Assembly (NCBI GenBank): GCA_964016885.1
Contig: OZ024743.1
Location: 69,254,001-69,318,000 of the forward strand
Direction: 5' to 3'
Length of the DNA stretch: 64,000 nt
Origin: Eledone cirrhosa
Lineage: Eukaryota
The position numbers and the translations under genes are program-made. The notes beneath the pieces were generated by a model, which did not search any database, was not told where the DNA came from, and saw only the letters and a program-made list of their open reading frames with translations. The stretch's first letter is position 1. Every line of letters begins with the position of its first letter. Shown one piece after another: positions 31,778 to 50,848 of the stretch.

Positions 31778-31853
31778 GGAGCCGATTTGGAGCCGATTCA
31801 GAGCCGATTCGGAGCCGATTCAGAGTCGATTCGGAGCCGATTCGGAGCCCATT
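31778..31853. repeat. 11-bp tandem repeat (GGAGCCGATTC) x7
   Basis: Read directly. Confidence 0.9.
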
Positions 31854-32515
31854 CGTCAGATATCTATTTCACTTATCCATTTTGAAAATCTTGATTGCAG
31901 ATTCGCTGAGTGACCTCAGTTTTGAGCTCTGTGAAAACCTCATCCCATCAGGTTATTTTACATTGAAGAAAAGAGTCTTCTGAGTTATAAGCTACCAGCC
32001 ATAATTTCGAATGGAAGAATTATCACATCATATACGGTAAATAGTATTTCGTAGCTCTCTGAAATACAAAGTTCACAGCACTTGTGTCCTCCCTCAAATG
32101 AGCGCGCTTCTGGAGTATTTCCAGTTGAGCGTGAAATGGGTGGAGTTCCTCTTGAGGCCCCAAACATGGGAGGCGAGTGTTGTCAGATTGGATTTCTCTA
32201 AAGATTTAATCTGTTTCGCCCTGAATGAATCGTGTTTGTAACAAGTAATCGGTAGGCATTTCGTCAGCAGGAGATAAGACTAAATGTTACATAACACCCA
32301 TAACAATAAACTCACTAAAGCTTACACCTCGTGCGTTGAAAGTCATATGCGGTGCGAGTGGTTATGCTATAAATAATAGCCTATTTACACTCATTTTTAT
32401 AAGCTCAACAGATAAGGAGCCGAAATACAAATAAAATATAGAGTTAATAACTCATATAGATACTCTGCAATTAACAGGTCGAAGTATAAATACTGAGCAT
32501 TATAATATTAATATA

Positions 32516-32704
32516 GGGCGGTGGATTGGCAGTATTGGTAGAGGGTCGGACGCCATGCTTTGACGTACAGAGTTACGGCCCTTGCCATTCTCATTTCAAA
32601 TCCCGCGGAGGCTAATTTTGCCTTTCATCCTTACGGGGTCGATAAAATAAAGTACCAGTAATGCACTGGGTAATTGCTGGCCTTGTTTCTAACGTAGAAA
32701 CAAT
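32516..32704 (+). mobile_element. Full-length tRNA-derived SINE with 16-bp TSD
   Basis: GGCGGTGGATTGGCAGTATTGG head, core and tail. TSD ATTATAATATTAATAT is at 32499-32514 and 32703-32718, and the empty site is visible in the mirror copy at ~33350-33367. Confidence 0.92.
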
Positions 32705-33111
32705 TATAATATTAATATGTGTAGAAGTAAACACAGTAAACCCGTGTCTAAAATTACGAGGGTAGATTACACCACAAATGATATATATCATTCAACCTGA
32801 ATCATATGGGATTTTACTAGATTTGTTACAAGATGTCTCATACATACCATATCAATAACCATTTCATCTCCCGGACAGACTAAATAATGCTCAGTATTTA
32901 TACTTTGAGCTTGTTAATTGCAGGGTAGCTATATGAGTTATTAACTCTATATTTTATTTGTATTCGGCTCCTTATCTGTTGAGCTTATAAAAATGAGTGT
33001 AAATAGGCTATTATTTCTAGCATAACCACTCGCACCGCATAAGATTTTCAACGCACGAGGTGTAAGCTTTAGTGAGTTTATTGTTATGGGTGTTATGTAA
33101 CATTTAGTCTT

Positions 33112-33203
33112 ATCTCCTGCTGACGAAATGCCTATGGATTACTTGTTACAAACACGATTCATTCAGGGCGAAACAGATTAAATCTTTAGTCTGTCCGGGA
33201 GAT
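33112..33203 (+). ncRNA. Type I hammerhead with long stems (family C)
   Basis: AUCUCCUG CUGACGA aau GCCU-AUGGAUU..GAUUCAU-uca-GGGC GAAAC AGAUUAA aucu UUAGUCU GUC^CGGGAGAU. Stem I is 8 bp and stem III is ~9 bp. Confidence 0.85.
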
Positions 33204-33673
33204 GAAATGGTTATTGATATTGTATGTATGAGAAATATTGTAAGATATTTTGTAAAATCCCATATGATTCAGGTTGAATGATATATAACATTTGAGGTGT
33301 AATCTACCCTCGTAATTTTAGACACGGGTTTACTGTGTTTACTTCAACACATATTAATATTATAATGCTCAGTATTTATAATTTGAGCTTGTTAACTGCA
33401 GGGTATATATATGCGCAAACTAAGTACACAACACACACAAAAACAAGATGGCGTAGGACAGAATAAAGGAAAGGCACACAAACAAAGAAAAGAATCCCCA
33501 GTCACTGAAGAGGTCACAGAATGAACTTTGACAATATATAAACAATCATCAGGTTGTGGAACCAACCAACAGGATATTTGTAAATTCCTAAATTTATAAA
33601 TTTATTATAATAAATTGAAGTGAAGCAACTAGTGCGTGTGTTTCTTATTGGCAACATGACCCTCCCAAAGTAT

Positions 33674-33796
<123 letters not shown>

Positions 33797-35069: not shown

Positions 35070-35201
35070 TACATGGAACTCCTTTAACCATCTTTTGATC
35101 TTATATTATATAAATATATATATATATATGAGTATCTTAGTAATTATAAATTCGAAAAGCATATATTTTCACTAGCTCTGACAGTTGGCAGGTAAGCAGT
35201 A

Positions 35202-35250
35202 AACTGCACTGATGAAGCTTACTCACCCAGAAACATTGATGTCTGCAGTT
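35202..35250 (+). ncRNA. Hammerhead core with perfect stems I/III but no local stem II
   Basis: AACUGCA CUGAUGA agcuuacucaccca GAAAC AU ug AU GUC^UGCAGUU. Confidence 0.7.
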
Positions 35251-35367
35251 CTGTTTGCATGCCAACACAAAAGCGAGAATGAGGGGCTCATTCTACTGAT
35301 ATGGCTTATAACAGAGGCTGTTGGGATAATTAAAAACGAATCGAATATTATTATTAATATTCAAAAA

Positions 35368-35522
35368 GGTCGGTGGATTGACATAGAGTTACGTCCCTTT
35401 ATAATATGAGTTTAAATCCCGCCGAGGTTAACTTTGCCTTTCATCCTTACGGGGTCGATAAAATAAAGTACCAGTAATGCACTGGGGTAATTGTTGGCCA
35501 TGTGCCAAACGTAGAAACAATT
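35368..35522 (+). mobile_element. tRNA-derived SINE with internal deletion, flanked by an ATTATTAATATT(C/A)AAAAA duplication
   Basis: The head GGTCGGTGGATTG is joined directly to ACATAGAGTTACG, and core and tail are intact. The empty site corresponds to ~2668-2695. Confidence 0.85.
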
Positions 35523-35801
35523 ATTAATATTAAAAAAACTCAGATTACATTTATTATATATGGTAGGGTCGGAAAGTGGTCTAATACGGAGGTAGGAGCT
35601 AGATAACGAAGGAGGTGTGGTAAGTAAGCAGATGGACCATAACGCACCAGAGTACTCAATACTTAGGGTAGTAGACTGGGTAATAGGAAAACGTTTAACC
35701 CCGACGGCAGAGCTCAAGCTGTTTCAACGGTTATTTCTAGTCCAGAAACAGCAGTCGAAACGGCTTGAGCTCTGTTGTCGGGGTTAAACATGTTCCTATA
35801 T

Positions 35802-46522: not shown

Positions 46523-49500
46523 AACCACTACCAACACCACCATTATCACCACTACCACTACCAACACCACCATTACCAGCACTACCACTACCAATACCAC
46601 CATTATCAGCACTACCACTACCAACACCACCATTACCAGCAATACCACTACCAACACCACCATTATCACCACTACCACTACCAACACCACCATTATCACC
46701 ACTACCACTACCAACACCACCATTATCAACACTACCACTACCAACACCACCATTATCACCACTACCACTACCAACACCACCATTATCACCACTACCACTA
46801 CCAACACCACCATTATCACCACTACCACTACCAACACCACCATTATCACCACTACCACTACCAACACCACCATTATCACCACTACCACTACCAACACCAC
46901 CATTATCACCACTACCACTACCAACACCACCATTATCACCACTACCACTACCAACACCACCATTGTCACCACTACCACTACCAACACCACCATTATCACC
47001 ACTACCACTACCAACAGCACCATTATCACCACTACCACTACCAACACCACCATTATCACCACTACCACTACCAATACCACCATTATCACCACTACCACTA
47101 CCAACACCACCATTATCACCACTACCACTACCAACACCACCATTATCACCACTACCACTACCAACATCACCATTATCACCACTACCACTACCAACACCAC
47201 CATTATCACCACTACCACTACCAACACCACCATTATCACCACTACCACTACCAATACCACCATTATCACCACTACCACTACCAACACCACCATTATCACC
47301 ACTACCACTACCAACAGCACCATTATCACCACTACCACTACCAACACCACCATTATCACCACTACCACTACCAATACCACCATTATCACCACTACCACTA
47401 CCAACACCACCATTATCACCACTACCACTACCAACACCACCATTATCACCACTACCACTACCAACATCACCATTATCACCACTACCACTACCAACACCAC
47501 CATTATCACCACTACCACTACCAACACCACCATTATCACCACTACCACTACCAATACCACCATTATCACCACTACCACTACCAACACCACCATTATCACC
47601 ACTACCACTACCAACACCACCATTATCACCACTACCACTACCAACACCACCATTATCACCACTACCACTACCAACACCACCATTATCACCACTACCACTA
47701 CCAACACCACCATTATCACCACTACCACTACCAACACCACCATTATCACCACTACCACTACCAACACCACCATTACCAGCAATACCACTACCAACACCAC
47801 CATTATCACCACTACCACTACCAACATCACCATTATCACCACTACCACTACCAACACCACCATTATCACCACTACCACTACCAACACCACCATTATCAAC
47901 ACTACCACTACCAATACCACCATTACCAGCACTACCACTACCAACACCACCATTATCAACACTACCACTACCAACACCACCATTATCACCACTACCACTA
48001 CCAACACCACCATTATCACCACTACCACTACCAACACCACCATTATCACCACTACCAACACCACCATTACCAGCACTACCCCTACCAACACCACCATTAT
48101 CACCACTACCACTACCAACACCACCATTGTCACCACTACCACTACCAACAGCACCATTATCACCACTACCACTACCAACACCACCATTATCACCACTACC
48201 ACTACCAACACCACCATTATCACCACTACCACTACCAACACCACCATTACCAGCAATATCACTACCAACACCACCATTATCACCACTACCACTACCAACA
48301 CCACCATTACCAGCACTACCACTACCAACACCACCATTATCACCACTACCACTACCAACACCACCATTACCAGCACTACCACTACCAACACCACCATTAT
48401 CACCACTACCACTACCAACACCACCATTACCAGCAATACCACTACCAACACCACCATTATCACCACTACCACTACCAACACCACCATTATCACCACTACC
48501 AACAGAACCATTATCACCACTACCACTACCAACACCACCATTATCACCACTACCACTACCAACACCACCATTATCACCACTACCAACACCACCATTACCA
48601 GCACTACCTCTACCAACACCACCATTATCAGCACTACCACTACCAACACCACCATTATCAACACTACCACTACCAACACCACCATTATCACCACCATTAT
48701 CACCACTACTACTACCAACACCACCATTATCAACACTACCACTACCAACACCACCATTATCACCACCATTATCACCACTACTACTACCAACACCACCATT
48801 ATCAGCACTACCACTACCAACACCACCATTATCAACACTACCACTACCAACACCACCATTATCACCACCATTATCACCACTACCACTACCAACACCACCA
48901 TTATCAACACTACCACTACCAACACCACCATTATCACCACTACCACTACCAACACCACCATTACCAGCAATACCACTACCAACACCACCATTATCACCAC
49001 TACCACTACCAACACCACCATTACCAGCACTACCACTACCAACACCACCATTATCACCACTACCACTACCAACAGCACCATTATCACCACTACCAACACC
49101 ACCATTATCACCACTACCACTACCAACACCACCATTACCAGCAATACCACTACCAACACCACCATTATCACCACTACCACTACCAACACCACCATTATCA
49201 CCACTACCAACAGAACCATTATCACCACTACCACTACCAACACCACCATTATCACCACTACCACTACCAACACCACCATTATCACCACTACCAACACCAC
49301 CATTACCAGCACTACCCCTACCAACACCACCATTATCAGCACTACCACTACCAACACCACCATTATCAACACTACCACTACCAACACCACCATTATCACC
49401 ACCATTATCACCACTACTACTACCAACACCACCATTATCAACACTACCACTACCAACACCACCATTATCACCACCATTATCACCACTACCACTACCAACA

Positions 49501-50848
49501 CCACCATTATCACCACTACCACTACCAACACCACCATTATCACCACCATTATCACCACTACCACTACCAACACCACCATTATCACCACTACCACTACCAA
49601 CACCACCATTATCACCACTACCACTACCAACACCACCATTATCACCACTACCACTACCAACACCACCATTATCACCACTACCACTACCAACACCACCATT
49701 ATCACCACTACCACTACCAACACCACCATTATCACCACTACCACTACCAACACCACCATTATCACCACTACCACTACCAACACCACCATTATCACCACTA
49801 CCACTACCAACACCACCATTATCACCACTACCACTACCAACACCACCATTATCACCACTACCACTACCAACAGAACCATTATCACCACTACCACTACCAA
49901 CAGAACCATTATCACCACTACCACTACCAACACCACCATTATCACCACTACCACTACCAACACCACCATTATCAACACTACCAACACCACCATTACCAGC
50001 ACTACCACTACCAACACCACCATTATCACCACCATTATCACCACTACCACTACCAACACCACCATTATCACCACTACCACTCCCAATACCACCATTATCA
50101 GCACTACCACTACCAACACCACCATTATCACCACTACCACTACCAACACCACCATTATCACCACTACCACTACCAACACCACCATTATCACCACTACCAC
50201 TACCAACACCACCATTATCACCACTACCACTACCAACACCACCATTATCACCACTACCACTACCAACACCACCATTATCACCACTACCACTACCAACACC
50301 ACCATTATCACCACTACCAACACCACCATTACCAGCACTACCCCTACCAACACCACCATTATCACCACTACCACTACCAACACCACCATTATCACCACTA
50401 CCACTACCAACACCACCATTACCAGCACTACCACTACCAACACCACCATTATCAGCACTACCACTACCAACACCACCATTATCACCACTACCACTACCAA
50501 CACCACCATTACCAGCACTACCACTACCAATACCACCATTATCAGCACTACCACTACCAACACCACCATTATCATCACTACCACTACCAACACCACCATT
50601 ATCAACACTACCACTACCAACACCACCATTATCAGCACTACCACTACCAACACCACCATTATCAACACTACCACTACCAACACCACCATTATCACCACCA
50701 TTATCAACACTACCACTACCAACACCACCATTATCACCACTACCACTACCAACACCACCATTATCAACACTACCACTACCAACACCACCATTATCAACAC
50801 TACCAACACCACCATTACCAGCACTATCACTACCAACACCACCACTAC
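46523..50848. repeat. ~4.3-kb 30-bp minisatellite CCAACACCACCATTATCACCACTACCACTA
   Basis: Two units fill each 60-nt line. Variant units with 6-bp deletions and 12-bp insertions occur in the second half. Confidence 0.95.

Follow-up and report, generated by a model that had tools for sequence, protein, structure and literature searches.

A 478-nt hammerhead-bearing non-coding repeat of Eledone cirrhosa with two fixed 3' ends away from the ribozyme cut

The hammerhead-bearing locus in the window, the 64,000-nt stretch of the Eledone cirrhosa genome analysed here, represents a single scarred copy of a non-coding repeat of 478 bases that carries a ribozyme. Copies of this repeat terminate, in the ribozyme's direction, at either of two fixed sites (A and B), and in inverted insertions these are combined almost strictly as one A end and one B end. 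The ribozyme does not set the ends of family copies. The element is probably a non-autonomous member of a known group, of Penelope-like element (PLE) type, and its A site is also a hot spot at which a tRNA-like SINE has inserted repeatedly and independently.

The window copy and its family

Unit positions (U) are numbered from U1 at window position 32884 with a period of 478. Self-comparison of the window revealed the direct repeat at this spacing, and BLAST recovered two inverted arm pairs, 32198-32424 against 32963-33189 (98% identity) and 32703-32884 against 33185-33366 (95% identity), which bears out the period and the direct repeat given in the original prediction. The plus arm (32884-33413, plus strand, 530 nt) runs from U1 through one full unit to U52; it exceeds one unit as had been stated, but continues past the end formerly placed at 33405, and its own end at 33413 falls 28 nt short of the usual B end. 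It contains the 80-nt tail between the family's two fixed 3' ends (32884-32963, plus strand; the B end is 32963), a complete type I hammerhead (33110-33205, plus strand) and an unoccupied A site (33351-33366, plus strand), an AT-rich near-palindrome where, in other copies, A arms end in (TA)n and the SINE inserts.

At a head-to-head inversion joint with one shared base (32884), the plus arm meets a mirror arm on the minus strand. The inner part of this arm (32703-32884, U302 to U483) starts 11 nt before the cut and the outer part (32198-32514, U468 to U306) ends 6 nt before the next cut, as first described, with an atypical 3' end that lacks (TA)n. The arm comprises 483 nt of unit sequence plus a 188-nt tRNA-like SINE (32515-32702, plus strand). 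This SINE follows U483, at the A site, is antisense to the unit and is flanked by a target duplication of 16 nt (left copy 32499-32514; right copy 32703-32718, within the inner part). Its hammerhead is divided between the two arm ends: the 5' part (32198-32277, minus strand) includes the stem I 5' strand, core, AAU, stem II, GAAA and most of stem III, and stops 6 nt before the cut. The GC content of the unit is low (33%), no open reading frame (ORF) of more than 28 codons occurs in its 478 nt, and Rfam at its gathering threshold returned no match anywhere in the window.

Both outer ends of the window copy abut truncated repeats. On the left lies a 162-nt endonuclease-coding fragment of a high-copy autonomous PLE (32036-32197, minus strand), cut on both sides, which, by its motifs, is putatively GIY-YIG/Hydra-like. 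On the right, with a 3-nt overlap at the join, lies the 5'-truncated 3' end of another PLE family (33411-33681, plus strand), which ends in (TA)n. Pfam gave no family for the two PLE ORF fragments. These flanking fragments differ by about 11% from their best relatives, as against 3.5% between the two window arms, and are therefore probably older than the insertion. None of the short contigs from three runs of unrecorded type, all of one sample, spans the window joints, which rest on the assembly; summed contig depth is very high over the PLE end (33425-33668) and the SINE (32515-32702) and far exceeds that of the unit, as expected if these two belong to much larger families. At 31778-31855, 180 nt to the left of the endonuclease fragment, an 11-nt G+C-rich repeat is present seven times in otherwise low-copy DNA.

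The genome, of 3.0 Gb, is rich in simple repeats. Further copies were collected by a DNA search (1623 first-look candidates, 40 scored) and by exact patterns, which yielded 44 and 61 ribozymes of the window subfamily, 471 tail 27-mers and 653 ribozymes of the wider lineage. From 237 loci, nine were set aside (seven from a flank search, a duplicate entry of the window locus and one segmental duplicate), and the resulting 244 chains gave 209 insertions with 315 arms once duplicates and chains cut by a locus end had been dropped. Because the loci were selected through sequence similarity or exact motif matches, the sample is poor in very short and very old copies.

In the direction of the ribozyme, 119 outer arm ends fall at site A (U466-6, mostly U477-3) and 141 at site B (U74-86, mostly U80), 80 nt away, so that 260 of the 315 arms end at one or the other; the remaining 55 lie elsewhere, a class inflated because alignments to a single reference break off prematurely in distant subfamilies. 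The adjoining DNA is TA-rich beyond 77 of the 119 A ends and 112 of the 141 B ends (189/260 together), as against 1 of the 55 other ends. Partial tandems with a fixed 3' end and variable 5' truncation are seen across the family, inner arm ends being scattered and variable. Subfamilies about 80% and about 69% alike share the same two ends and the same architecture, and between subfamilies the tail, the stretch before A and the ribozyme are better conserved (69-78%) than the spacers (49-60%).

Several other arrangements were encountered during sampling. Younger sister subfamilies have periods of 472 and about 450 and a ribozyme insert of 1 nt. A 5.4-kb segment holding one insertion is present three times at C17:7693000-7708000 (L071, L072); these copies, 5.4 kb apart, are a segmental duplication without an ORF. 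Two minisatellites have arisen from pieces of the unit, one from a 26-nt piece just after the ribozyme cut (L070:47-1353) and one from a piece over the A site, in multiples of 32 nt (C24:30337764-30339215).

The hammerhead, its cut site and the template

The hammerhead is the minimum-energy structure in folding (-29.7 kcal/mol), with a stem I of 10 bp and a stem III of 9 bp, at a z score of -4.7 and with none of 200 shuffles equally stable. The long-stemmed form thus stood as predicted, while its span had been set slightly too short (33112-33203), stem I delimiting 33110-33205. The GUC triplet occupies 33193-33195, and the predicted cut follows 33195 (U312). An alignment of 39 copies shows no variation in the core, in the G10.1-C11.1 pair or in the UC of the cut triplet; 94% of cells are paired, and 11 double changes, all in stem I, compare with 4.2 after shuffling, a count that relatedness inflates. 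Stem III measures 8-9 bp in the family, in contrast to the mostly short helix III of animal type I motifs, and with a stem of this length the ribozyme is predicted to fold as a monomer.

Both window arms carry the three extra nucleotides (AAU) that had been noticed between CUGACGA and stem II, that is, between A9 and G10.1. Of 110 ribozymes, 96 have an insert of 3 nt, 6 have one of 2 nt and 8 have one of 1 nt; this last form occurs commonly among the ribozymes of the wider lineage. An insertion of three was not found in the literature; supplements, and the PLE hammerhead variants reportedly treated by Lunse et al. in 2017, could hold some. One extra base at this position is known from PLE hammerheads (PMC4209133) and from the plus strand of the viroid CChMVd, in which the identity of the base alters the rate (PMC3705267), each as far as the accessible text extends. 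The position is the same in those systems and the G10.1-C11.1 pair is likewise kept, whereas they have a single inserted base in place of the graded series of 1, 2 and 3 seen here (PMC4209133, PMC3705267, in their accessible parts). This series amounts to a natural dose series for the tolerance of the hammerhead core, and the 3-nt insert may weaken cleavage. The available text on a squid genome mentions 235 hammerheads without detail (PMC6962438). Further hammerhead-like cores occur in the window at 2162, 18333, 37150 (+), 18065 (-), 34526, 43075 and 18654 (+), and those at 63478 and 63788 (-) form a 310-nt direct pair; such cores, some in repeated copies, probably represent further PLE families.

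The original prediction placed the monomer ends next to the ribozyme cut. Mapped onto the circular unit, end phases show no enrichment there. Outer ends lie within 15 nt of the cut in 3 of 315 arms, one of them the window's mirror arm, which is also the sole arm of the 315 to end just before the cut. Among well-aligned arms, 8 of 184 inner ends fall in U297-330, and the bins on either side contain 5 and 8. A near-complete census was made of the copies that carry the two ribozyme patterns (95 insertions, 145 arms). In it, the cut was reached from downstream by 30 arms, 28 of which read through while 2 stopped within 6 nt (U313-318); ends in U313-328 numbered 4 against 2.5 expected. Colinear copies with fixed termini had been named as evidence against the prediction, and half of this was found, the outer 3' ends being fixed at two sites far from the cut. 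Its broader statement was right: the unit is a retrotransposed, hammerhead-bearing repeat, and the cDNA runs across the cut and has been joined up in both orientations.

For the window copy itself, the original prediction can be read as a reverse transcriptase (RT) that entered a cleaved or ligated monomer at its 3' end, circled once, passed the junction by 11 nt and switched strand, so that the ribozyme would set the ends. The mirror arm fits this course exactly, with 483 nt, a 3' end 6 nt before the cut and a 5' end 11 nt past it; a crude simulation puts the coincidence of both ends at 3.4e-4 per atypical arm and 0.02 among 55, and the flanks were probably there first, with off-site priming a possibility. 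Against these points, the copy was chosen for its coincidence, which has a chance of 0.1 among 300 atypical arms; inner ends near the cut are not enriched, no other arm ends right before the cut, and outer ends abutting truncated repeats are what deletions would leave. As a family rule the proposal is already refuted, and we judge it improbable for the window copy. This copy is atypical in having neither an A end nor a B end, and its left end lacks (TA)n; its outer ends were likely lost by deletion, or primed off-site, against the older PLE fragments.

Read-through of the cut implies a template that was either uncleaved or re-ligated. A ribozyme-cut, re-ligated 478-nt circle, primed at A and B and giving tandems by rolling round, is a serious candidate, although we lean somewhat away from it. 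Arms cross the cut in spite of a ribozyme predicted to fold alone with long stems, the core is invariant and compensatory changes occur in stem I. Sister subfamilies include arrays of 6 (L239:3445-6800) and 3 (L244:3249-4664) ribozymes with an inverted arm, and at one locus (L138) two consecutive units contain an identically truncated SINE with an identical junction. Circular RNAs are expressed from invertebrate retrozymes (PMC7229834), and circles have been proposed as PLE templates (PMC7229834, PMC4209133), according to the accessible parts of these papers. An uncleaved multimer, however, explains the same data, and the single PLE that has been assayed in vitro worked mainly on an unprocessed RNA (PMC11167929, accessible text). 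Moreover, the longest census arm measures 928 nt and two-ribozyme tandems are rare in the window subfamily, with only 4 of 392 segments crossing the cut twice; the 6-unit array shows nested similarity with two identical units, as duplication at the DNA level gives, and the 3-nt insert could impair cleavage. A stall after one turn of a circle was sought in the stop rates: those near A and B exceed that of the spacer only about twofold, a difference that overlap with AT-rich sequence could also produce. Folded as a circle, the unit is only mildly more stable than shuffles (z -2.1, 40 shuffles).

Probable affiliation with Penelope-like elements and the pairing of ends

The ORF-less 478-nt hammerhead repeat is probably a non-autonomous PLE of the retrozyme type, copied in trans by a PLE RT-endonuclease. 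The family displays partial tandems, an inverted 5'-truncated arm, (TA)n ends, a hammerhead and no ORF, and its 80-nt tail is optional and often at one end only (73 A/B pairs among 76 classed pairs). Published descriptions of PLEs give as their marks partly tandem copies, an inverted copy truncated at its 5' side, a tail that is frequently confined to one end, and (TA)n targets (PMC8557442, accessible text). The same architecture, with the hammerhead in the repeat, characterizes the EN+ PLE clades (Neptune, Hydra, Naiad and Poseidon) and their non-autonomous derivatives, as far as the available text of Craig et al. 2021 (PMC8557442) shows; the present family differs from these EN+ PLEs in its lack of an ORF, its tail of 80 nt as opposed to 30-40, and its near-strict A/B pairing. 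Animal non-LTR retrozymes, in the available portions of Cervera and de la Pena 2020 (PMC7229834) and Li et al. 2026 (bioRxiv 10.64898/2026.07.22.740005), share with it a small, low-GC, non-coding repeat, a type I hammerhead and a proposed PLE origin or mobilisation, and they have been argued to be non-autonomous PLE derivatives (bioRxiv 10.64898/2026.07.22.740005). Their published repeats of 150-450 nt are just below the 478-nt unit, and their head-to-tail arrays contrast with the mostly 1-2 units in head-to-head insertions of the family, which also has a long stem III.

The Poseidon element PAc of Anolis offers a biochemical comparison in the accessible text of Frangieh et al. 2024 (PMC11167929). 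Its cDNA synthesis in vitro begins at either of two internal positions, which mark the limits of the tail, and both DNA strands are cut and extended with a preference for ATT; the hammerhead is dispensable, and no reads ended at the ribozyme cut (PMC11167929). The two tail-delimiting sites, the extension of both strands, the AT-rich target and ends away from the cut are thus common to PAc and the family. PAc start sites are, however, not homologous to the cut DNA, whereas A and B overlap (TA)n by a few bases; likewise, the two strands of PAc are the same in start site, whereas the two ends of one family insertion use different sites (PMC11167929). The asymmetry between A and B is therefore a constraint beyond what the in vitro system displays. 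Several observations count against PLE mobilisation as modelled: strict A/B pairing is not predicted from strands alike in start site, the tail exceeds the published 30-40 nt, the window copy shows no A end, no B end and no (TA)n at its left end, and the loci examined for an autonomous partner yielded none.

A search for an autonomous partner covered several sets of loci. No PLE ORF ran into the unit at 71 tail-motif sites or in 20 + 20 loci with 4-kb flanks, and the 86 stretches examined on the downstream side of PLE endonuclease fragments yielded no matches other than chance neighbours. One candidate partner family was rejected, the unit being absent from 14 of its 14 other copies. No autonomous partner was found among these loci, which leaves mobilisation of the unit by a PLE as an inference. 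Constant attachment to a PLE ORF, as in an ordinary pLTR, had been raised beforehand as the alternative; at the tail sites and flanked loci just listed, no ORF runs into the unit, and the unit is not attached to the 3' end of an RT-endonuclease ORF.

Inverted insertions make up 106 of the 209. Their outer ends comprise 73 A/B pairs, 3 A/A pairs, no B/B pair and 30 pairs with an atypical end; independent choice would give A/B in half, and the excess among the 76 classed pairs has a binomial p of 9e-19. A near-strict pairing of this kind was not found in the literature, where the family lists of PMC8557442 (represented by its accessible part), Repbase and early Penelope papers could hold some. 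The strand switch of the original prediction cannot be a fold-back in 43 of 73 A/B pairs, where the A arm is too long for a fold-back of the B arm, and this origin of the inverted arm was rejected. Shared inner ends between the arms were likewise rejected, since the inner ends of paired arms are no closer than chance. At most inversion joints the two arms share a few bases. Arms belonging to the same insertion show a median difference of 4.0%, against 7.2% between insertions, and 41 of 51 fall in the lowest quartile. A probe for very short B arms matched 13 of 32 lone A arms and 4 of 51 lone B arms, which is a hint only.

One way to obtain strict A/B pairing together with a SINE at one fixed place would be a single inverted source copy, with or without the SINE, amplified whole, with variable centres left by later palindrome deletions; the centres of long inverted repeats do get lost. 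That the arms of one insertion are closer to each other than to other insertions argues against it: both arms follow the subfamily of their insertion, not an A-arm or a B-arm lineage. Several SINE subfamilies are represented among the embedded copies, which intermingle with free ones (a single clade is rejected, p-AU 3e-57) and differ in truncations and duplications, and empty and filled A sites occur together in 32 loci. This origin is largely refuted already and we consider it extremely improbable. The simplest reading of the pairs is two asymmetric priming events, one for each side of one break, on RNA of one source. L1 twin priming, in which two target ends prime one transcript, also gives head-to-head inversions with short-overlap joints, and to that extent resembles these insertions. 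In L1, however, the second site is variable and lies 5' of the stop of the first cDNA, whereas the second site of the family is fixed and most B arms run past it.

How tandem, inverted and tailed PLE insertions are made has been named an open question (PMC8557442), and the in vitro system left the steps after initiation unresolved (PMC11167929), according to the accessible text of both. A short, young, ORF-less family provides hundreds of readable insertion products; the statement that the tail is often at one end becomes a near-strict rule (73:3:0) that constrains any mechanism, and the 478-nt unit is a substrate for testing how the ends are paired.

The SINE hot spot and a proposed mechanism

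The SINE of the window had been set aside as a later insertion; it is not incidental and marks a hot spot, a SINE standing antisense after U483 in many family copies. Exact counts at the A site gave 42 filled and 82 empty matches genome-wide, and, because 13 of the empty matches are one minisatellite, an occupancy of 42 out of about 112. In the sampled loci, 69 A sites were filled against 144 intact passes. Comparable ATTAT sites in flanking DNA are filled in 0.8-3.0% of cases, and the most AT-rich, AT-matched background class in 7 of 268 (2.6%), an odds ratio of 22 relative to the A site. Occupancy by arm position (13/57, 7/20 and 8/16) shows no significant difference. This hot spot was not found in the literature, where supplements and Repbase entries could hold some.

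The embedded SINEs are independent insertions. They vary in truncation, show re-entry, and include different subfamilies stacked at one site, and filled and empty A sites share the same insertion in the 32 loci mentioned above. In a tree of 24 embedded and 10 free long copies, label changes numbered 9, against 8.8 after shuffling, and it was this tree that rejected a single embedded clade; the subfamily assignment rests on alignment and tree. Two SINEs (L050, L145) bridge the inversion joint without a duplication. At locus L138, two adjacent units about 95% alike share one 5'-truncated form of the SINE as well as its junction, which indicates that the SINE-bearing unit was itself copied in tandem. 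In sister subfamilies the A site lacks ATAAT, and no SINE was seen at the A site in 20 loci, four of which look like duplicates of one region. The window SINE presumably resembles one SINE superfamily in particular. The partner LINEs of that superfamily are unknown, according to the accessible part of PMC4824008.

A second ribozyme-bearing, (TA)n-ending family with inverted pairs (window 35155-35560, plus strand; L089, L110, L127, L253) has this SINE inserted at a single position of its own, which lies some 30 nt from the family's 3' end and within the loop of a perfect inverted repeat. Twelve sites were filled among the first 100 of 3851 exact matches listed for its 3' region.

Whether the hot spot involves the PLE enzyme is evenly balanced in our estimation: there is about an even chance that it is unrelated, and that the SINE's own LINE favours the AT-rich near-palindrome, as cruciform or bent DNA, after integration. 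Free SINE copies also begin their duplication with ATTAT (40 of 53), their duplications of 8-22 nt are typical of LINE action, occupancy is similar at all A-site positions, and the hot spot of the second family sits in an inverted-repeat loop. On the other hand, the AT-matched background is rarely filled in comparison with the A site, no SINE occupies the ATTAT at U127 in any of 83 passes, and the overlapping pentamer on the opposite strand is almost always empty; a PLE-type 3' end is found no more than about 30 nt from each of the two hot spots, and the joint-bridging SINEs at L050 and L145 lack the duplication.

The course that we propose for these insertions, as part of the probable PLE reading, is as follows. 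The enzyme would open both strands of a (TA)n tract, after which one DNA end would prime at B and its opposite at A, both on RNA from a single source. The cDNAs would each run a variable distance, with a stop chance of about 0.5% per base, and would cross the cut on a template that is uncleaved or re-ligated; the two cDNAs would then be joined through short overlaps. At intact A sites in partial tandems, a renewed nick or a persisting free 3' end would then likely be available in ATAAT, which could pair with the 3' end of SINE RNA and prime its copying. The window copy would likely be such an insertion, its outer ends lost, or primed off-site, against two older PLE fragments.

A bolder scheme, which we put forward as speculative and, taken as a whole, rather unlikely, has a PLE enzyme act on a small ribozyme-closed circle and prime the two ends of one double-strand break at two different fixed sites, in an obligatorily asymmetric manner, with a nick or paused 3' end that it leaves at its own A site used to copy tRNA-derived SINE RNAs. 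Were this bolder scheme correct, the SINE would ride on Penelope integration sites, with an occupancy of a single base position of about one-third here and about one-eighth in the second family. From the hot spot one can read off at which base, and on which strand, a free DNA end recurs within the element; if a PLE protein makes that end, it would link two retroelement classes for which no cooperation was found in the literature. Elsewhere in the window, two 4-kb G/T-rich arrays of related short units lie on opposite strands (23714-27792 and 46524-50845) and give strong opposite GC skews.
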